This document shows, piece after piece, positions 1-50,280 of a stretch of 64,000 nt of DNA. The first letter of the stretch is position 1. The number at the start of each line of letters is the position of its first letter. Below the pieces are notes generated by a model, which did not search any database, had not been told where the DNA came from, and worked only from the letters and a program-made list of their open reading frames with translations. Made by a program: the position numbers and the translations under genes. The stretch spans positions 136,834,001 to 136,898,000 of the forward strand of contig NC_135809.1 of the NCBI RefSeq assembly GCF_964213995.1. Reading direction: 5' to 3'. The stretch is from Mustelus asterias (taxonomy: Eukaryota).

Positions 1-56
1 GCCGAAGGGCCTGTTCTGCGCTGTAATGTTCTATGTTCTATGTTCTATGTTCTATG
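1..56 (+). mobile_element. 3' tail of a CR1-clade LINE (runs in from beyond the window edge)
   Basis: ggccgaagggcctgtt...(TTCTATG)n tail, same as the CR1 3' ends at 6860-6920 and 36090-36138. Confidence 0.85.
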
Positions 57-625
57 TCGAATGCCTTCTTCACCACTCTGTCCACCTGTGACTCCACTTT
101 CAAGGAGCTATGAACATGAACCCCTAGATCTCTTTGTTCTGTAACTCTCCCCAACACCCTACCAATAACTGAGTAAGTCCTGTCCTGGTTCAATCTACCA
201 AAATGCATCACCTCACATTTGTTGAAATTAAACTCCATCCGCCAACTGCCTGCCCACTGGCCCAATTGATCAAAATCCCGCTGCAATTGGAGATAACTTT
301 CTTCACTGTCCACTATGCCACCAATCTTAGTGTCATCTGCAAACTTACTAACCATGCCTCCTATATTCTCATCCAAATCATTAACATAAATGACGAATAG
401 CAGTGGACCCAGCACTGACCCCTGAGGCACACCGCTGGTCACAGGCCTCCAGTTTGAAAAATAATTCTCTTCAACCACCCTCTGGCTTCTGTCAAGAAGC
501 CAATTTTGTATCCATTTAGATGCCTCACCTTGGATTCCATGAGATTTAACCTTATGCAACAACCTACCATGCAGTGCCTTGTCAAAGGCCTTGCTAAAGT
601 CCATGTAGACAACACCAACTGCATT
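57..625 (-). mobile_element. CR1 LINE ORF2 fragment (RT domain)
   Basis: ORF 38..604 has [17 protein letters not shown] and KFADDTK reverse transcriptase motifs. Confidence 0.92.
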
Positions 626-813
626 GTTTGTTATAAAAAGGGTTCTCCTGAAACCACTTGTGGAAAAATGTGGTGAAGGAAGTCCATGAATTAAAAATGC
701 TTCGATTGTCTGAAATTGAGTGCCAAGAATTTGCTGAATCTTTACTGGGACCCATGAATAATTTTCATGGCATTGGATGGAGCACTATGATTTCCAGCAT
801 TGGGTAAAAAAAT

Positions 814-2126: not shown

Positions 2127-2623
2127 TTGATTTGATTTGATTTTATTTATATTGTCACATGTATTAGTTATATAATGAATAGTATTGTTTCTTGCGCGCT
2201 ATACAGACAAAGCATGCTGTACATAGAGAATGAAAGAAGAAAGTGCAGAATGTATTGTTACAGTCATAGCTCGGGTGTAGATAAAGATCGACTTAATGTG
2301 AGGGAGGTCCATTCAAAAGTCTGACAGCAGCAGGGAAGAAGCTGTTCTTGAGTCGGTTGATAAGTGTCCTCAGACTTCTGTATATTTTTCCCGACAGATG
2401 AAGGTGGAAGAGAGAATGTCTGGGGTGCGTGGGGTCCTTAATTATGCTGACTGCTTTGCCGAGGCAGTGGGAAGTGTAGACAGAGTCAATGGCTGGGAGG
2501 CTGGTTTGCGTGATGGACTGGGCTTTCTTCACAACGCTTTGTAGTTTCTTGCGGTCTTGGGCAGAGCAAGAGTTACATCCAGCTGTGATACAACCAGAAA
2601 GAAAGCTTTCTATGGTGCATCTG
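2127..2623 (-). mobile_element. Rex1/Babar LINE 3' fragment
   Basis: ORF 2293..2628 RCTIES..CITA..AQDRKKLQ..NRLKNSFFPAAVRLLN; (TCAAA)n tail. Confidence 0.85.
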
Positions 2624-2997
2624 CTCATTGTTCAACCGGAGCAAGGCAGAGAGGAGCGATTTGTGGCTGCAGTAAAAAGGGTAAGGGATGAACTTTATTT
2701 TCATTACTTTTTCACGGGGTTTCTTTTTTACGAGTTTAAGGGAAAAGCAGAAGTAGGCCGGGCGTGGGGTGATCTTTTTTTTTAAGCGCGCGGGAGGTTT
2801 CAAAAGCAGGCCGCACTATCCAGCGGGCAGCGGAGTTAGCGGGCAGCGGAGTGAGCAGGCAGCAGAGTGAGAGCTGAAGGGCTTTGGCTCAACGGGCTTA
2901 GGAGGAATCGGGCGAGGGAGGGTAGGTTTAGTTTTTAGTTGTTTCACCTTTTAAGTCTTAAGTTCTTTCCCTGTGGAATCTGAGGAAAAGGGACATT

Positions 2998-3919
2998 ATG
3001 AATGTGAAGCCAGTTTGCTGTTCTCGGTGCCGGATGTGGGAGGTCGTGGAGTCTCCTAGCCTCCCAGGGGTGCATATCTGCGCTAGGTGTGTCGAGCTGC
3101 GGCTCCTAAGGGACCGAGTTAGGGAACTGGAGCTGCAGCTCGAGGACATTCGTCTGGTCAGGGAAAACGAGGAGGTGATAGATAGGAGTTATAGGCAGGT
3201 GGTCACACCGGGGCCACAAGAAGCAGGCAAGTGGGTCACAGTCAGGAAAGGGAAAAGTCAGGTGGTAGAGAGTACCCCAGTGATTGTGCCCCTTAAAAAT
3301 AACTACTCTTGTTTGAGTACTGTTGGGGTGGACAGCCCACCTGGTGGAAGCAGCAGTGGTCGTGTCTCCGGCGTGGAGTCCAGCCTTGTCCAGAAGGGTA
3401 AGGAAAGGAGGAGGAAGGCAGTGGTGATCGGGGACTCTACAGTGAGGGGGTCAGACAGGCGTTTCTGTGGAGGAAGTCGAGAAACGCGGATGGTGGTTTG
3501 CCTCCCTGGTGCCGGGATCAGGGATGTTTCTGAACGTATCCAAGAAATCCTGAAGTGGGAGGGAGAGGAGCCAGAGGTCGTGGTGCATACTGGTACCACT
3601 GACATAGGCAGGAAAGGGGAAGGGGTTATGAAAAGAGAATATAGGAAGTTAGGTAGGGAGTTAAGAAGAAGGAACGCAAAGGTAGTAATCTCGGGATTGC
3701 TGCCTGTTCCACGAAACAGTGAGGGAAGGAACGGAATAAGGTGGAGGATAAATGCTGAGGGATTGGAGCAGGGGTCAGGGATTCAGGTTCCTGGATCATT
3801 GGGACCTCTTTAGGGGCAGTTGGGACCTGTACAAAAAGGACGGGTTTCACTTAAATCCCAGGGGGACCAATATCCTGGCAGGAAGGTTTGCTAAGGCTAC
3901 TGGGGAGTGTTTAAACTAG
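2998..3919 (+). pseudogene. CR1 ORF1 (zinc finger, leucine zipper, SGNH-type esterase), frameshifted near 3755
   Basis: CxxC..CxxC, coiled coil, GDSTVRG, VHTGTTD; the shifted frame continues ...DGFHLN...ECLN* with TAG at 3917-3919. Confidence 0.9.
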
Positions 3920-6830
3920 AATGGTTGGGGGGTGGGAATCGAAATGAGATGACTGGGAGAGAGGAGGTTAGCTTAAAAATAAAAGGGGCTTGTAGACAGT
4001 GTGAGAGGGAGCATAGGCAGGTGACGGAGAAGGGAAGCGCTCAGACCGAAGGGTTGAGATGTGTGTATTTTAACGCAAGGAGTGTAGTGAACAAAATGGA
4101 TGAGCTTAGAGTGTGGATCGTTACTTGGAAGTGTGATGTGGTGGCCATTACAGAGACTTGGTTATCTCAGGGACAGGACTGGATACTTCAAGTGTCGGGT
4201 TTCAGATGTTTCAGGAGGGACAGGGAAGGAGGCAAAAGAGGTGGGGGAGTGGCACTGTTGATCAGGGATAGTGTCACGGCTGTAGAAAAGATGGACACCA
4301 TGGAGGGATTGTCTACGGAATCTCTGTGGGTGGAGGTTTGCAACAGGAAGGGGTCAATAACTTTACTGGGTGTTTTCTATAGGCAGCCCAATAGTAGCAG
4401 GGATGTGGAGGAGCAGATTGGGAAGCAGATCCTGGAGAGATGTGATAATAACAGAGTGGTCGTGATGGGAGATTTTAATTTCCCAAATATCGATTGGAAT
4501 ATCCCTAGGGTAAGGGGTTTAGATGGGGAGAAGTTTGTTAGGTGTGTTCAGGGGGGCTTCCTGACACAGTATGTAGATAAGCCTACAAGAGGAGAGGCTG
4601 TACTTGATTTGGTATTGGGAAATGAACCTGGGCAGGTGTCAGATCTCTCAGTGGGAGAGCATTTTGGGGATAGTGATCATAACTCTATCTCCTTTACATT
4701 AGCATTGGAGAGAGATAGGATCAGTCAAGCGAGGAAAGTGTTTATTTGGAGTAAGGGCAATTATGAGGTTATTAGGCAGGAAATCAGAGGCATAAACTGG
4801 AAGGTTTTCTCAGGGAAATGTACAGAAGAAATGTGGCAAATTTTCAAGGAAAATTTGTCTGGAGCTCTGCACAGCAACGTTCCAATGAGACAGGGGAGTT
4901 ATGGTAGGTCACAGGGACCATGGTGCACGAAAGCTGTAACGAATTTAGTCAAGACGAAAAGAAAAGCCTACAAAAGGTTCAGGGAGCTAGGTAATGTTAG
5001 AAATCTAGAAGAGTATATGACTAGTAGGAAGGAACTTAAGAGGGAAATTAGAAGAGCAAGAAGGGGTCATGAGAAGGCCTTGGCAGACAGGATAAAGGAA
5101 AACCCCAAGGCATTCTACAAGTATGTTAAGAGCAAGAGGATAAGATGTGAAGGAGTAGGACCTATCAAATGTGATGGTGGGAAAGTCTGTATAGAACCGG
5201 TAGAAATGGCAGAGGTACTCAATAAATACTTGGCTTCAGTATTCACAGTGGAAAAGGATCTTGGTAGTTGCAGTGCAGACTTGCAGTGGACTGAGAAGAT
5301 TGAGCATGTGGACATTAGGAAAGAGGATATGTTGGAGCTTTTGAAAAGCATCAAGTTAGATAAATTGCCGGGACTGGATGGGATGTACCCGAGGTTACTG
5401 TGGGAGGCGAGGGAAGAGATTGCTGAGCCTCTGGCGATGATCTTTGCATCATCAATGGAGACAGGAGAGGTTCCGGAGGATTGGAGGATTGCGGATGTGG
5501 TTCCGTTATTCAAGAAAAGGAGAAGAGATAGCCCAGGAAATTATAGACCAGTAAGTCTAACCTCAGTGGTTAGTAAGTTGATGGAGAAGATCCTGAGAGG
5601 CAGGATTTATGAACATCTGGAGAGGAATAGTATGATCAGAAATAGCCAGCACGGCTTTGTCCAAGGCAGATCATGCCTTACGAGCCTAATTGAATTTTTT
5701 GAAGATGTAACTAGACACATAGACTAGGGAAGAGCGGTAGATGTAGTTTATATGGATTTCAGCAAGACGTTTGATAAGGTGCCGCATGCAAGACTCATTG
5801 AGAAAGTGAAGGGGCATGGGATACAAGGGGACATTACTTTGTGGGTTCAGAACTGGCTTGCCCACAGAAGGCAAAGAGTGGTTGTAGATGGGTCTTTTTC
5901 AGCATGGAGGTCGGTCACCAGTGGAGTACCCCAGGGATCTGTTCTGGGACCCTTGCTCTTTGTGATTTTTATAAATGACCTGGATGAGGAAGTGGAAGGA
6001 TGGGTTGGCAAGTTTGCTGATGACACAAAGGTTGGTGGGGTTGTGGATAGTGAGAGGGATGTCAGCAGTTGCAACGAGACATAGATAAGATGCAAGACTG
6101 GGCGGAGAAGTGGCAGATGGACTTCAACCCAGATGAGTGTGTGGGGGTTCACTTTGGCAGGTCGAATCGGATGAAAGAATATAATATTAAGGGTAAGACG
6201 CTTGGCAGTGTGGAAGATCAGAAGGATCTTGGGGTCCGGGTTCATAGGACGCTCAAAGCAGCATCGCAGGTGGAGGCTGTGGTTAAGAAGGCGTATGGAA
6301 TACTGGCCTTCATCAATAGAGGAATTGAGTTTAGAAATTGGGAGATAATGCTGCAGCTGTATAGGACCCTGGTCAGACCCCATCTGGAGTACTGTGCCCA
6401 GTTCTGGTCGCCTCATTACAGAAAGGATGTGGGAGCCATAGAAAGGGAGAAGAGGAGATTTACAAGGATGCTGCCTGGATTAGGTGGCATGCCTTATGAG
6501 GATAGGTTGAGAGAGCTCGGTCTTTTCTCCTCGGTGAGACGAAGGATGAGAGGTGACCTGATAGAGGTGTATAAGATGCTGAGGGGTATTGATAGAGTGG
6601 ATTCTCAGAGGCTTTTACCCAGGGCTGAAATGGTTTCCACAAGAGGTCACAGATTTAGGATGCTGGGGAGTAGGTACAGTGGAGATGTTAGGGGTAAGTT
6701 TTTCACTCAGAGGATGGTGGGTGCGTGGAATCGGCTGCCGGTAGTGGTGGTGGAGGCGGATTTGATAGGGTCTTTTAAGAGACTTTTGGACAAGTTCATG
6801 GACGTTCGTAAGATAGTGGGTTATAGGTAA
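3907..6830 (+). pseudogene. CR1 ORF2 (APE endonuclease + RT); premature TAG at 5725-5727 and frameshift near 6055
   Basis: YFNARS, ITETWL, MGDFNFP, SDHN (APE); [29 protein letters not shown] (RT) across ORFs 3907..5727, 5752..6084 and 6069..6830. Confidence 0.95.
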
Positions 6831-7312
6831 GCCCAGTAGGTAGGGACATGTTCGGCACAACTTGTGGGCTGAAGGGCCTGTTTGTGCTGTAGCTTTTTTA
6901 TGTTCTATGTTATATGTTCTCTATCTGTGAAATGTATTGAAAAATACAGTATTTTATATGTAACAAGTCAAAAATTCTTAAATATTTTATTGAATTAAAT
7001 GTCGGATTTAATTTTAATCTGGGTTGTTGGTGATGGAATGGAGTTTGTTAGTTTTAAGGATCTTGAGCTGAGATTTGCTATTTAGAATACTTTCCAAGGT
7101 GTAGCTGCAGTTTCAGTGAGACAAGAGTGAATTTAACTTGTGTGTCGCAGCAGATCACAGTAAGTGCAGCAATCTGGGAGAGATCTTGTTTTTGGAACTG
7201 GTTGTTGGTTAGAGGTAGCAGTGAGGACAATTGAAATGGTGGCCAGAGCAATCAAAGCAGTCGCCTGTAAATGGAGGTGCGAGCAGCACTACTGTGCCAC
7301 TTCCTAGATGCT

Positions 7313-7448: not shown

Positions 7449-8689
7449 TGCTGTCTATTTAAGGAGAGGCACATAAGTCCCAGTCACAAATTAAGTATTC
7501 TATACTCCATACTTCTCTATTGTGTATTCTGTTTGTCCAGCCTGGGGGAGAATTATGCAGGTAATAACCTAATTTACTTTTTGCTTTTGCTTACTGGTAA
7601 CAATATAACTTAATTTACAGCAGTGATTCAATTTGACTAAGTTCAGTGTAGATGGAAACTCAGATACCATTTAATTTTTCCCTTCGAATGATTGTGTTGG
7701 CAGAAGAAGCTAATCTTCAACCCAGCGCTATAGTTCTCTGAATTAGCACTGACAATTATCAAGGTTGCAATGACCTCAACAAGACAGGACTTCATCCATT
7801 CATTGTAAATGGTGTTCGTGGAAATGAACTTTCTTGATAAAAATGATCCCGTACAGAATTCTCCACTTGTCGTCCAGCACAGAGAGGTTAGTAAAACCAT
7901 GGGCACCCGTTGGAAAAGTTAATTGAAAATATCAAGTTTGGATTATCCAGCTTCATTCATTGGGTAATTGTCATAGCCAAACATTTATCTTATTCAGGTT
8001 CTGGAAAGAGAATGAATGGAATAATTTGCAGATTTAAGGATAGTTGTTGAAAAACAATAAATGATGAGAGTGTAAAGTGCATTTCCAGTATGTTTTGAAT
8101 AACAAAAAGTGTGATAGAATGTCTATATTTAAATCTACATTTTAATTACATAATCATTCTCCTTAACTTGTCAGTCTACAGAAGGTTTCTCAAGTTAATC
8201 CTAAACCTATGTAATATGCACAAGTATACATGAGTTAGTTTTTTTTGCACACTTTAATAAGAATTGACACACAGATTTCAAATGTTGCCCGAAGGACAAG
8301 TAACGAATCAACCACAGAAAGAAGACGATATAAACACTCTGAGTACAATGTCATATTAATAGCACCAAGGCAACAAAAAGCAATTAAGGGAAAACCATAG
8401 GGAGATTAAAAGAGAATAGTATATCATATGAAGATAACATGCTTAGGATTGCTGTCATGTGATGAAACGATGTAGTTTTATTGTAAATGAAATATCTCTC
8501 ACAGTTCATTTTAATGGAAATTAACTTTGATTCAGTGGGCTTACTTTTGCAAATGTAAAAAGTGTATCTGAAAACCGTTTGCAAAAATATTTAACATTTT
8601 GATGGAAGGACTGGATTACATTGCACCAATTTGCAGGGGAAAACCGGACACTGATGGGCTCGCACTGACCTTGATAAGAATTGGAAAAT

Positions 8690-9660
8690 GTTTATAGATG
8701 ACATAGATGATTTGGAGTTGGGGACCAAGTGTAGTGTGTCAAAATTCGCAGATGACACTAAGATGAGTGGCAGAGCGAAGTGTGCAGAGGACGCTGAAAG
8801 TCTGCAAAGGGATATAAATAGTCTAAGTGAGTGGGTGAGGGTCCGGCAGATGGAGTACAATGTTGGTAAATGTGAGGTCATCCATTTTGGTAGGAATAAC
8901 AGCAAAATGGACGATTATTTAAATGGTAAAAAATTGCAGCATTCTGCTGTGCAGAGGGACCTGGGTGTCCTTGTGCAGGAATCTCAAGGAGTTGGTTTGC
9001 TGGTGCAGCAGGTAATTAAGAAGGCAAATGGAATTTCGTCCTTCATTGCTCGAGGGATGGAGTTTAAAAACAGCGAGATTATGTTGCAGCTGTATAAGGT
9101 GCTGGTGAGGCCACACCTGGAGTACTGTGTACAGTTTTGGTCTTACTTGAGAAAGGATATACTGGCACTGGAGAGGGTGCAGAGGAGGTTCACCAAGTTG
9201 ATTCTGGAGTTGAAAGGGTTCGCTTATGAGGAGCGACTGAGTGGACTGGGGCTATACTCAGTGGAATTCAGAAGAATGAGGGGAGATCTTATAAAAACAT
9301 ATAAGATTATGAAGGGAATAGATAAGATAGAAGCAGGGAAGTTGTTTCCACTGGCAGGTGAAACTCGAACTAGGGGGCATAGCCTCAAAATAAGGGGGAG
9401 CAGATTTAGGACTGAGTTGAGGAGGAACTTCTTCACACAAAGGGTTGTGAATCTGTGGAATTCCCTGCCCAGTGAAGCAGTTGAAGCTACCTCATTGAAT
9501 GTTTTTAAGGCAAGGATAGATAAATTAAGGGTGGGTAAGTGGAGTGGGTGGGTAAGTGGAGCTGAGTCCATAAAAAGATCAGCCATGATCTTACTGAATG
9601 GCGGAGCAGGCTCGAGGGGCCAGATGGCCGACTCCTGCTCCTAGTTCTTATGTTCTTACT
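8690..9660 (+). mobile_element. CR1 LINE 3' fragment
   Basis: ORF 8688..9644 KFADDTK..RPHLEYCVQFW..RGHS..FFTQRV; (TTCTTATG)n-like tail. Confidence 0.92.
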
Positions 9661-15739: not shown

Positions 15740-17170
15740 AGGCTATGTTATTGTATGGAGAGCTGAGAATTATGCAGTCGTTGCAATGGGAGATTTCAAT
15801 TATCCAAATACAGAGACTGGGATAGTATTAGTGTAAAGGGCTGGGAGGGAAAGAGTTGTTAGCTTGTGGTCAGGAAAATGTTCCGCAGTAATATGTTTCC
15901 AGTCCGTTAATAAAGGAGGTGTGGCTAGATTGGGTTTTTGGAAATGAAGCGAGCCCAGTGAGTCAATTTCAGTGGGGGAGCCTTTAGGGAAGAGTGATCA
16001 CTGTATCATAAGGTTTAGGTTTGTTATGGAAAAGAGCATGGAGCAATCCAGAATAAGAATAATGAAGTGGAAAATCACCCATAGAACATAGAACAGTACA
16101 GCACAGAACAGGCCCTTCGGCCCACGATGTTGTGCCGAGCTTTATCTGAAACCAAGATCAAGCTATCCCACTCCCTATCATCCTGGTGTGCTCCATGTGC
16201 CTATCCAATAACCGCTTAAATGTTCCTAAAGTGTCTGACTCCACTATCACTGCAGGCAGTCCATTCCACACCCCAACCACTCTCTGCGTAAAGAACCTAC
16301 CTCTGATATCCTTCCTGTATCTCCCACCACGAACCCTATAGTTATGCCCCCTTGTAATAGCTCCATCCACCCGAGGAAATAGTCTTTGAACGTTCACTCT
16401 ATCTATCCCCTTCATCATTTTATAAACCTCTATTAAGTCTCCCCTCAGCCTCCTCCGCTCCAGAGAGAACAGCCCTAGCTCCCTCAACCTTTCCTCATAA
16501 GACCTACCCTCCAAACCAGGCAGCATCCTGGTAAATCTCCTCTGCACTCTTTCCAGCGCTTCCACATCCTTCTTATAGTGAGGTGACCAGAACTGCACAC
16601 AATATTCCAAATGTGGTCTCACCAAGGTCCTGTACAGTTGCAGCATAACCCCACGGCTCTTAAACTCCAACCCCCTGTTAATAAAAGCTAACACACTATA
16701 GGCCTTCTTCACAGCTCTATCCACTTGAGTGGCAACCTTTAGAGATCTGTGGATATGAACCCCAAGATCTCTCTGTTCCTCCACAGTCTTCAGAACCCTA
16801 CCTTTGACCCTGTAATCCACATTTAAATTAGTCCGACCAAAATGAATCACCTCACATTTATCAGGGTTAAACTCCATTTGCCATTTTTCAGCCCAGCTTT
16901 GCATCCTATCTATGTCTCTTTGCAGCCTACAACAGCCCTCCAAAACCAGGATGGTAAAAAAGAAAGAAATTGAGATGATAAAGAAAAAATGTGCTTATGA
17001 CAGATGTCAGGCAAACAATGCAAATGAGAATGAGGCTGAATATAGAAGGGGAAGAGAAAAAGCCAGTAAGAGAAGCACAGAGACTATGATATGAGACGTA
17101 CAGTTAATACCAAAGAAAATCAACAAGTCTTCTATCGTAAAGGGTGATTAAAGGAGGAGTGGACCTGTTT
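15740..17170 (+). mobile_element. old degenerate CR1 ORF2 fragment interrupted by a younger CR1
   Basis: atgggagatttcaattatcc (MGDFNYP), agtgatcac (SDH) and aaagaaaatc..aag remnants. Confidence 0.6.
16081..16940 (-). mobile_element. young CR1 3' fragment with an uninterrupted reading frame
   Basis: ORF 16158..16943 is intact; near-identical to 35774-36138 and 48463-48986. Confidence 0.95.
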
Positions 17171-29914: not shown

Positions 29915-31470
29915 TTGGGGAGAGTTACAGAACAAAGAGATCTCAGGGTACATGTTCTTAGCTCCTTGAAAGTGGAGTCACAGGTGGACAGAATGGTGAA
30001 GAAGGCATTCAACATGCTTGGTGTCATTGGTCAGAACATTGAATACAGGAGTTGGGACTTCTTGTTGAAGTTGTACAAGACATTGATAAGGTCACACTTG
30101 GAATAGGGTCTGGTCACCCTATTATAGAAAGGATGTTATTAACCTAGAAAGAGTGCAGAAAACATTTACTTGGATGCTACTGGAATTTGATCGTTTGAGT
30201 GAGAAGGAGAGGCTGGATAGAACATAGAACATAGAAAGCCACAGCACAAACAGGCCCTTCGGCCCACAAGTTGCGCCGATCACATCCCCACCTCTAGGCC
30301 TATCTATAGCCCTCAATCCCATTAAATCCCATGTACTCATCCAGAAGTCTCTTAAAAGACCCCAACGAGTTTGCCTCCACCACCACCGACGTCAGCCGAT
30401 TCCACTCACCCACCACCCTCTGAGTGAAAAACTTACCCCTGACATCCCCCCTGCACCTACCCCCCAGCACCTTAAACCTGTGTCCTCTCGTAGCAACCAT
30501 TTCAGCCCTTGGAAATAGCCTCTGAGAGTCCACCCTATCCAGACCTCTCAACATCTTGTAAACCTCTATCAGGTCACCTCTCATCCTTCGTCTCTCCAGG
30601 GAGAAGAGACCAAGCTCCCTCAACCTATCCTCATAAGGCATGCCCCCCAATCCAGGCAACATCCTTGTAAATCTCCTCTGCACCCTTTCAATGGCTTCAA
30701 CATCTTTCCTGTAATGAGGTGACCAGAACTGCGCGCAGTACTCCAAGTGGGGTCTAACCAGGGTCCTATAAAGCTGCAGCATTATCTCCCGACTCCTAAA
30801 CTCAATCCCTCGATTAATGAAGGCTAGTACTCCATACGCCTTCTTGACCGCATCCTCCACCTGCGAGGCCGATTTAAGAGTCCTATGGACCCGGACCCCA
30901 AGGTCCTTCTGATCCTCTACACTGCTAAGAATGGTACCCTTCATTTTATACTGCTGCTCCATCCCATTGGATCTGCCAAAATGGATCACTACACACTTAT
31001 CCGGGGACATTGGATCTGCCAAAATGGATCACTACACACTTATCCGGGGACTTTTTTCTCTGGAGTGTAGAAGGCTGAGAGCTGATCTTCTAGAGGTCTA
31101 TAAAATAATGAGTGACACAGATCAGCTAGATAGTCAATATCTTTTCCCAAAGGCAGCAGAGTCTAAAACTAGAGGGCATAGGTTTAAGGTGAGAGGGGAG
31201 AGATACAAAAGTGTCCAGAGGGGTAATTTTTTCACACTGAGGGTGGTGAGTGTCTGGAACAAGCTGCCAGAGGCAGTAGTAGAGGCGGGTACAATTTTGT
31301 CTTTTAAAAAGCATTTTAGATAGTTACATGGGTACAATGGGTATAAAGGGATATGGGCCAAATGTGGGCAATTGGGATAAGCTTAGGGGTTTAAAAAAAA
31401 AGAGCGGTATGGACAAGTTGGGCTGAAGGGCCTGTTTCCATGCTGTAAACCTCTATGACTCTATGACTCT
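29915..31470 (+). mobile_element. CR1 3' fragment interrupted by another CR1
   Basis: ORFs 29915..30106 and 30931..31323; (CTCTATGA)n tail. Confidence 0.9.
30218..31050 (-). mobile_element. nested CR1 3' fragment
   Basis: ORF 30300..31022 is intact; 43-bp tandem duplication at its 5' junction. Confidence 0.92.
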
Positions 31471-33383: not shown

Positions 33384-33832
33384 CAGTCCAAAGATGTGCG
33401 GGTTAGGTTGATTGGCCATGCTAAAATTGCCCTTAGTGTCCTGGGATGCGAAGGTTAGAGGGATTAATGGGTAAATATGTAGGTTGGAGGGATGTCAGAA
33501 GCTGCAGTGTGACAGAGATAGGATGCAAGACTGGCGGAGAAGTGGCAGATAGACTTCAACCTGGATAAATGTGTAGTGGTCCATTTTGGCAGGTCAAATG
33601 GGATGAAGGAGTATAATATCAAGGGTAAGACTCTTAGCAGTGTAGAGGATCAGAAGGACCTTGGGGTCCAGGTCCATAGGACTCTTAAATCGGCCTCCCA
33701 GATAGAGGAGGTGGTTAAGAAGGCATATGGTGTGCTGGCCTTCATCAATCGAGGGATTGAGTTTAGGAGTCGGGAGATAATGATGCATCTTTATAAGATC
33801 CTCGTCAGACCCCACTTGGAGTACTGTGCTCA
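33384..33832 (+). mobile_element. HE1 SINE fragment fused to a CR1 RT fragment
   Basis: cagtccaaagatgtgcgg...aaatatgtagg, then the ORF 33576 region HFGRSNG..RPHLEYCAQ. Confidence 0.8.
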
Positions 33833-33858
33833 GTCAATGGTGTCAACTGAATCACAAT

Positions 33859-48419: not shown

Positions 48420-50280
48420 TTGATTTGATTTGATTTATTATTGTCATATTGTCATATGTATTACATAGAACAGTACAGCACAGAACAGGCCCTTTGGCCC
48501 ACGATGTTGTGCCGGGCTTTATCTGAAACCAAGATCAAACTATCCCACTCCCTATCATCCTGGTGTGTTCCATGTGCCTATCCAATAACCGCTTAAAATG
48601 TTCCTAAAGTGTCTGATTCCACTATCACTGCAGGCAGTCCATTCCACACCCCAACCACTCTCTGCGTAAAGAACCTACCTCTGATATCCTTCCTATATCT
48701 CCCACCATGAACCCTATAGCTATGCCCCCTTGTAATAGCTCCATCCACCCGAGGAAATAGTCTTTGAACGTTCACTCTATCTATCCCCTTCATCATTTTA
48801 TAAACCTCTATTAAGTCTCCCCTCAGCCTCCTCCGCTCCAGAGAGAACAGCCCTAGCTCCCTCAACCTTTCCTCATAAGACCTACCCTCCAAACCAGGCA
48901 GCATCCTGGTAAATCTCCTCTGCACTCTTTCCAGCGCTTCCACATCCTTCTTATAGTGAGGTGACCAGAACTACACACAATATTCCTGTATTGGTATTGG
49001 TATTGGTATACAGTGGTATACAGTGCGCACTATACAGATAAAGCATAACATTCATAGAGTCCATAGGGGAGAAGGAAAGGAGAGGGTGCAGAAAATAGGG
49101 GGGAATTTTACCATTTTGAGTCTAAGTGCCGAATCCGGGCGTCAAATAGATCCGCGCCTGGAATCCTCTTTCCAGCGCGCCCATACGCGTTTTGCCAGCT
49201 CCGGCCCAATCTGCGCTGTGGGCGGGGCTTAGCGCTGGCGGACCGATCGGAGCTCTGAACTGCGCATGCACAATTCGGAAAAAATCTGACAGAGCGCGCC
49301 CGAGCGCGAAAGAAAAAGCAGAAAGCAGGGGGTGTGACGTCTCATCCTCTGGTCGGGGGGGTTCCGCTGCTTGTCTGCGGCCGATCCCTCCTGGCACCAT
49401 CACTGGTTCACTACCAGCCACAGCCATCTCTCCCGCTCTCTCGCACCTGCAGGGAAGAGTAATCTGTGGCTGGTAGTGAACCAGTGATGGTGCCGGGAGG
49501 GATCGGCCGCAGACAGGCAGCGGAACCCCCCGACCAGGGGATGATCGGTCACACCCCCTCCCCTCCCACCCCCCCCCCCCCCCCCCCCTCCAGAGGATGA
49601 GACGTCACACCCCCTCTCCTCCCACCCCCCCCAGGGGATGATTGGTCACACACCCCCACCCCTCCACCCCCCCACCCCACCCCCCCAGGGGATGAGACGT
49701 CACACCCCCTCTCCTCCCACCCTCCTCCCGCCCCGACCCGAGGATGACCTGGGTCAGAGAGCCGTTGCAGTCTCTGACTCCGCTCTTCGGAGGCTGCAGC
49801 GGCGACTTCAGACTTTTATTTTGCAGGTCGGTAACAGCGCGGACGCGGATTGGGCCAGAAGACGGTAAAGTGGGATTTGGCGGGAGAGCTGGGCGCGCGG
49901 TTCATTAAGTCGATTTAAATGCCCGAATCGGGTGTCGATAAAGCCGCGATCTGCTCGAAATCGGGTGCAGATCGCGGTATCGGCCCGACGCCCAACTTTA
50001 CCAAAAACGGGCGCGAAGTTTTGGTAAAATCAGGCCCATAGTGTTACAGTCATAGCTAGTATGTAGAGAAAGATCAGTTGAATCCATGTCTGGTTCATTC
50101 AAAAGTCTGATGGCAGCAGGGAAGAAACTGTTCTTGAGTCGGTTGGTACGTGACCTCAGATTTTTGCATCTTTTTCCCAATGGAAGAAGGTGGAAGAGAG
50201 AATAACTGAGGTGCGTGGGGTCCTTGATTATGCTGGCTGCTTTTCCGAGGCAGCGGGAAGTGGAGATAGAGTCAATGGAT
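48420..50280 (-). mobile_element. Rex1/Babar 3' fragment with nested young CR1 (48463-48986) and a DNA element (49098-50037)
   Basis: (TTTGA)n tail; ORF 49998..50390 RTNRLKNSFFPAAIRLLN; CR1 TSD TGTATT. Confidence 0.88.
49098..50037. mobile_element. 940-bp non-autonomous DNA transposon (PIF/Harbinger-like)
   Basis: GGG..attttacca / tggtaaaat..CCC ends, 3-bp TSD ATA; host Rex1 sequence rejoins when the element is removed. Confidence 0.75.

Follow-up and report, generated by a model that had tools for sequence, protein, structure and literature searches.

The CR1 element and its ORFs

The window, meaning the whole 64,000-nt stretch of DNA analysed here, contains a near full-length CR1 LINE of the shark type. 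The features of the element and its relatives in the window are listed below.

2625..6925, + strand: shark-type CR1 LINE, dead and close to full length; its two ends are approximate and were judged by eye
2998..3753, + strand: 5' segment of ORF1, with a Cys-rich N-terminus, a coiled-coil-like stretch and an SGNH esterase
3755..3919, + strand: 3' segment of ORF1, assigned by homology, terminating in ...ECLN*
3910..3916, + strand: slippery heptamer T_TTA_AAC, in X_XXY_YYZ phase with ORF1
3917..3919, + strand: TAG, the ORF1 stop codon abutting the heptamer (TAA in some families)
3910..5727, + strand: first open stretch of ORF2, with the APE endonuclease and the start of the RT, closed in the window copy by a stop at 5725-5727
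3920..4071, + strand: variable linker, read in the -1 frame, that separates the heptamer from the endonuclease motif NARS
3927..3931, + strand: conserved GGGGG, nt 11-15 after the heptamer and core of the G-tract at 3923-3936; candidate stimulator
3949..3951, + strand: ATG private to the window copy by contig depth (GTG in the shark-type family)
5728..6830, + strand: remainder of ORF2, in two pieces (5728-6084 and 6054-6830)
38-784 (-), 8655-9644, 16097-16924 (-), 30235-31005 (-), 33487-33834 (+) and 48618-48986 (-): further CR1 fragments

ORF1 starts at the ATG at 2998, and the frame from there stops at 3811-3813. Comparison with homologues placed a frame break near 3752-3755; homology (81% to residues 256-309 of P0001) assigns the segment that ends at 3919 to ORF1. 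ORF1 was 67-86% similar to proteins with PF13472 or PF00657, which identifies it as an SGNH esterase ORF1; its own Pfam match was to OSK only and lay below the cut-off. Among named proteins, those closest to it come from rays, skates and sharks and carry SGNH esterase domains, and its closest homologues, P0001 and P0002, group among shark and ray ORF1s in the esterase tree. In ORF2, Pfam detected Exo_endo_phos (E 6e-19) followed by RVT_1, the expected APE and RT domains. ORF2 of this copy is split into three pieces. With this and the frame change in ORF1 the copy is dead, as the initial annotation had said. Published esterase-type CR1 LINEs (PMC13343379, PMC3905857) likewise combine an SGNH esterase ORF1 with an APE-RT ORF2, and their consensuses share the junction described below.

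Degenerate short repeats were seen by eye at both ends of the element: a tandem repeat of roughly 17 nt within the 5' untranslated region (2822-2875), and another repeat at the 3' end (approximately 6896-6925). The further CR1 fragments in the window are 5'-truncated RT or 3'-end pieces, 67-84% similar to the element and all without ORF1; no second ORF1 junction was found within the 64,000 nt. A 112-codon frame at 2293-2631 (-) lies immediately upstream of the element and presumably corresponds to the 3' end of another LINE type.

The junction between ORF1 and ORF2

The 3' segment of ORF1 ends with TGT TTA AAC TAG, giving the protein end ...ATGECLN*. The -1 frame reads FKLEWLGGG... and is open from 3895 to 5727, through the endonuclease domain and into the RT. 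The Asn of NARS is encoded at 4072-4074, and the next Met of the -1 frame is at 4096. The initial annotation had proposed that a coronavirus-type slippery heptamer connects the two ORFs. Its map was correct throughout: TTTAAAC occupies 3910-3916, TAG 3917-3919, the G-tract GGTTGGGGGGTGGG 3923-3936 and an ATG 3949-3951. Translation also confirmed that the heptamer is in the phase of ORF1 and that the -1 frame is that of ORF2, open through the APE domain.

Generic slippery heptamers occur 288 times in the 64,000 nt, and 18 of them, one being TTTAAAC, are on the + strand of the element. Similarly, TTTAAACTAG with one mismatch was observed six times against 5.1 expected by chance. Since such heptamers are common in the window, the case rests on conservation. 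The motif in a single copy means little; its position and its conservation across lineages, as compared below, exceed chance.

Conservation within the shark-type family

We compared the region 3820-4100 with four of 24 listed sequencing runs, a list that included no RNA run; the four were three contig sets (727, 492 and 163 pieces) and one raw-read run, in which no read matched the region. Among the differences listed for the three contig sets, whose pieces had to match the region at 80% and so favour conserved stretches, none reached 3% at 3910-3921 or 3927-3932; positions 3904, 3908, 3909, 3922 and 3933 do vary in the same sets.

The initial annotation had cautioned that the in-frame ATG at 3949 would permit re-initiation. 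This caution does not apply to the family, as G was found at 3949 in 99.7%, 99.8% and 100% of the related contig depth in the three runs, and we rejected this ATG as the start of ORF2. Weighing against frameshifting, a C>T change at 4025 creates an in-frame ATG in 15%, 8% and 53% of the depth in the three runs; a G>A change goes with it at the next base, 4026, as CpG decay would produce. The next family-wide Met, at 4096, sits behind the NARS Asn (4072). This Asn aligns with the N-terminal motif of the L1 endonuclease. An Asn mutant of the endonuclease N-terminal motif crippled Zorro3, according to the available part of PMC1965478, and the NARS Asn is probably equivalent to the residue mutated there.

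Conservation across vertebrates

We scanned metagenomes for internal esterase patterns, none of them covering the junction, and obtained 41 loci. Nine of them had a readable CR1 junction (L001, L002-L005, L007-L009 and L027), and the remaining 32 end short of the junction, are without it (L012) or are unrelated esterases. L001 is sturgeon-type (95.5% to a sturgeon ORF1). The other eight readable loci were closest to a swallow ORF1 and are called bird-type by this ORF1 similarity. The heptamer was present in all nine readable junctions, followed by TAG in eight and by AAG in L027; these and the following counts come from related sequences and are not independent. Four loci were found in the genome contigs searched, and these were unrelated or without a junction.

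We aligned the window junction with those of seven loci, omitting L004 (too short) and L027 (decayed). In this alignment TTTAAACTAG forms ten consecutive invariant columns, in contrast to 6 of 60 columns upstream. The first T of the heptamer is a wobble base, and it is fixed beneath C, H, S and A codons. In these CR1 elements TTA accounts for 14% of Leu codons and AAC for 47% of Asn codons. In 8 of 10 junctions the -1 frame closes at 1-5 codons before the heptamer; thus, ORF2 has no upstream start there. Downstream, the distance from the heptamer to NARS (35-90 codons) is open and in frame in seven of the eight readable copies, and L001 has no Met between the two.

The consensus library in the supplement of PMC13343379 gave at least 20 matches to TTTAAACTAG or its TAA version, of which 17 of 20 lie at junctions as judged by eye and three elsewhere; this motif search selects positives and gives no denominator. 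By their label abbreviations, the junction families come from alligator, crocodile, bowfin, bullfrog, coelacanth, elephant shark, stingray, sawfish, catshark, dogfish and one teleost. The comparison of junctions suggested in the initial annotation came out in favour of its proposal: the heptamer, the stop and the -1 phase are kept from sharks to bird-type CR1s, and the ATG at 3949 is not.

C-terminal tails of distant ORF1 proteins

Deeper relatives were compared at the protein level. We collected 257 proteins; in 161 of them the esterase motif lies 20-45 residues before the C-terminal end, and these have 148 distinct tails. A tripeptide compatible with an X_XXY_YYZ heptamer ends 93 of the 148 distinct tails compared with 4.1% of internal tripeptides; the other 55 end incompatibly. 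The search profile included the LN columns, which introduces a small bias. In 82 of 83 tails, the residue before LN is one whose codon may have T as its last base (nominal p 4e-6; the rows are not independent). All nine GN endings are QGN, and both KN endings are SKN. Five more tails carry xKN at an equal distance from the esterase motif and stop later. At the protein level, these xLN, QGN and SKN tails would fit U_UUA_AAC, G_GGA_AAC and A_AAA_AAC, respectively, which a 2016 review names among the heptamers most shifty on mammalian ribosomes. Searches for DNA of the QGN and SKN families in viral contigs gave 0, 1 (L046, weak) and 0 loci, and plasmids gave none; no QGN or SKN junction was present among nine matches in the published consensus library.

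A quick tree was made from 115 esterase domains, thinned from 146, with the junction excluded. Within the clade that includes the named vertebrate CR1s, 48 of 53 rows end in LN. Compatible endings were found in 0 of 15 rows of a fish sister clade, which we take to be L2-like, and in 20 of the 47 other rows.

Several database records are of separate interest. The distant ORF1s P0160, P0201, P0206 and P0256 end in FF plus one residue, which could reflect a U-run shift site of another type. P0019, encoded on a 4.2 kb contig, bears the name SGNH hydrolase and is assigned to Pseudomonas aeruginosa. Its sequence is that of a shark-type CR1 ORF1 with a GLN terminus, and the entry is likely host contamination in the database. 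Ray gene models for hydroxyacid oxidase 2 (P0059), 40S ribosomal protein S24 (P0045) and TMEM204 isoforms (P0084/P0085) contain CR1 ORF1. P0059, a single-member record, runs from the esterase through FKL into the endonuclease, as the predicted transframe product would.

The conserved G-run and search for a 3' stimulator

GGGGG (G5) was invariant in all eight aligned junctions, and L027 has it as well. In the -1 frame, the first G of the run is the last base of a variable codon (Leu, Lys or Arg), and the Gly codon is always GGG, compared with 36% expected. Several published consensuses carry G5 at the same spacing with other spacers, and some gap-collapsed ones are without it. The initial annotation had put forward the G-tract, 6 nt after the heptamer, as a stimulator. 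A conserved element at the nucleotide level was indeed found, but its core is GGGGG at 10 nt, not 6 nt, and has no predicted structure.

No hairpin or pseudoknot 3' of the heptamer stood out in the eight junctions (z -1.1 to +0.8), by a folding method that cannot predict pseudoknots, and no shared stem appeared. In particular, the stable stem-loop 5-9 nt downstream of the heptamer that marks canonical -1 signals was not found. A three-tier quadruplex motif was absent from all eight junctions, and a two-tier quadruplex fold was predicted in three. A search for a long-range partner of the G-run gave none that was shared, the best duplexes lying at unrelated places in each locus, and Rfam had no match at the junction. 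In viral frameshifts that are stimulated by a protein, the spacing is typically 10-14 nt. Protein stimulation of frameshifting is on record in the 2016 review, to which no natural case of a G-quadruplex frameshift was known. G5 may be a new type of frameshift stimulator.

Proposed mechanism of ORF2 expression

We propose that active relatives of the element probably reach ORF2 by programmed -1 frameshifting on U_UUA_AAC, which would produce an esterase-endonuclease-RT fusion. This reading is based on the in-phase heptamer, the abutting stop, the open -1 frame, the lack of a conserved AUG, the conservation across vertebrates and the G5 at a fixed distance. The majority of ribosomes would terminate at UAG, freeing ORF1p. 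In a minority, tRNA-Leu and tRNA-Asn would re-pair on UUU AAA and translation would continue in the -1 frame (...LN or ...FK, then LEW...), and the product of the slip would be an esterase-linker-APE-RT fusion. Pausing would be due to the stop codon adjoining the site and to the G5 element, rather than to a pseudoknot. The outcome would be a high ratio of ORF1p to ORF2p, with ORF2p tethered to the ORF1p particle. That ribosomes slip, how often they do so, that a fusion results and what G5 contributes are inferred from sequence comparison; the conserved heptamer, stop and -1 phase support the ORF1-ORF2 fusion that the initial annotation had suggested for CR1.

Of the properties of a canonical -1 frameshift signal, the junction has the in-phase heptamer, the open -1 frame and conservation of the site at the nucleotide level. 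As in canonical signals, the same heptamer in the same phase would fuse a structural gene to a polymerase gene. CR1 differs from them in that no pseudoknot or stem is predicted 5-9 nt downstream, the stop abuts the heptamer, and G5 lies at 10 nt. A more specific version may be offered tentatively, and as a whole it is rather doubtful: a retrovirus-like -1 frameshift in esterase-type CR1 that predates the split of sharks and bony vertebrates, switches between the three most shifty heptamers in deeper lineages, and works without structure through the stop and a G5, fixed at a spacing of 10 nt, that is bound by protein or forms a minimal quadruplex. As part of this version, the binder would be a host protein that binds G-runs or ORF1p itself; otherwise, a minimal quadruplex would stand at the mRNA entrance of the ribosome.

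Alternative readings of the junction

Ribosomes could instead stop at UAG or UAA and begin anew on an AUG or non-AUG codon close by, making ORF2p as a separate protein, the heptamer and G5 serving as a signal for termination or for holding the ribosome. Bicistronic LINE RNAs of this kind are represented by SART1, with its UAAUG stop-start, and by human L1, with AUG-independent re-initiation (available text of PMC3708506 and PMC11485995). Some CR1 families share with SART1 an AUG adjoining the stop (PMC3708506, in part). An in-frame ATG lies 2 nt after TAG in four of the eight bird-type loci (L002, L003, L005 and L009), and in ScyCan_CR1-1a, SquAca_CR1-17a and SquAca_CR1-6c (PMC13343379 supplement) the heptamer is followed directly by TAATG in the ORF2 frame, so that the slippery site and the SART1-type stop-start share one junction in these three shark consensuses. 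The lack of 3' structure at the junctions agrees with re-initiation, too. In addition, since L1 ORF2 is translated AUG-independently (PMC11485995 and PMC5009743, in their available parts), the lack of an AUG in CR1 is not decisive. However, the AUG is patchy and the heptamer fixed: no AUG at the ORF1 stop in the ORF2 frame is conserved across the junctions, and the shark-type family, L001, L004, L007, L008 and L027 have none at that place. CR1 is unlike SART1 and L1 in this respect and in its conserved slippery heptamer in the -1 register. Re-initiation predicts neither the X_XXY_YYZ phase, the fixed wobble T, the constant -1 register nor the switch among LN, QGN and SKN, and the patchy AUGs do not explain the phase, the wobble fixation or the switch. 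We consider re-initiation as the sole route to ORF2 unlikely; both routes could coexist, and re-initiation may accompany frameshifting in lineages with an AUG.

The motif might also be kept for a reason silent on ORF2 translation, such as a C-terminal Leu-Asn needed by the esterase or a binding site in DNA or RNA. LN does close the last predicted esterase stretch at a nearly fixed distance from DGLH, and the published library contains TTTAAACTA in two CR1 5' regions as well. A protein constraint, however, fixes neither TTA, AAC nor the wobble base before them, LN is missing from the fish sister clade, and the tail varies from 22 to 39 residues with its ending unchanged; a fixed binding site would not change to GN or KN endings. 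We regard this reading as improbable. Still harder to credit is that transcriptional slippage or RNA processing brings ORF2 into frame at the RNA level. Database proteins running from ORF1 into FKL do exist (P0059, P0031 and P0161), but each is a record with a single member, best interpreted as a mutated copy or a gene model, and three T and three A make short runs for slippage by a polymerase. A search for natural in-frame ORF1-ORF2 fusion families, a weak test, gave six matches, all tubeworm gene models without RT domains.

Relation to known systems and significance

Frameshifting at the -1 site, our preferred reading, has a precedent among APE-type LINEs. In the available text of PMC5911963, a -1 frameshift to ORF2 is stated for TRE5-A and TRE3-A of Dictyostelium, which differ from CR1 in clade, host and ORF1. 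A +1 frameshift is suggested for Paramecium elements (PMC5405496, in part), and a frameshift inside the gag of HeT-A is described (PMC5009743, in part). Thus, -1 frameshifting is already on record among LINEs, and by the comparisons made here the CR1 site is real and conserved. The main text of PMC13343379 makes no mention of a frameshift, overlap, slippery site, translation, start codon or fusion. Neither a frameshift proposal for CR1 nor any other mechanism for translating its ORF2 was found in the available text of the literature searched (PMC13343379, PMC4316615, PMC3905857, PMC5009743 and bioRxiv 10.64898/2026.06.17.732966), a scope that ends short of the CR1 papers of 1997-2003; an overlap or a passing remark on frameshifting may be present in Haas 1997, Kajikawa 1997 or Kapitonov and Jurka 2003.

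The synthesis of ORF2p from bicistronic LINE RNAs is described as unclear (PMC11485995 and PMC3708506, in their available parts). The conserved -1 site offers a testable answer and predicts a Gag-Pol-like ORF1-ORF2 fusion. Annotations of CR1 ORF2 that start at a Met would then be wrong at the N-terminus, and assays of CR1 should keep the junction intact. CR1-group elements are the dominant retrotransposons in most vertebrates and make up 22-34% of shark and ray genomes. If the structure-free version of the mechanism were true, the dominant repeat of most vertebrate genomes would carry a natural frameshift switch that works without RNA structure, and feedback by ORF1p would be possible.
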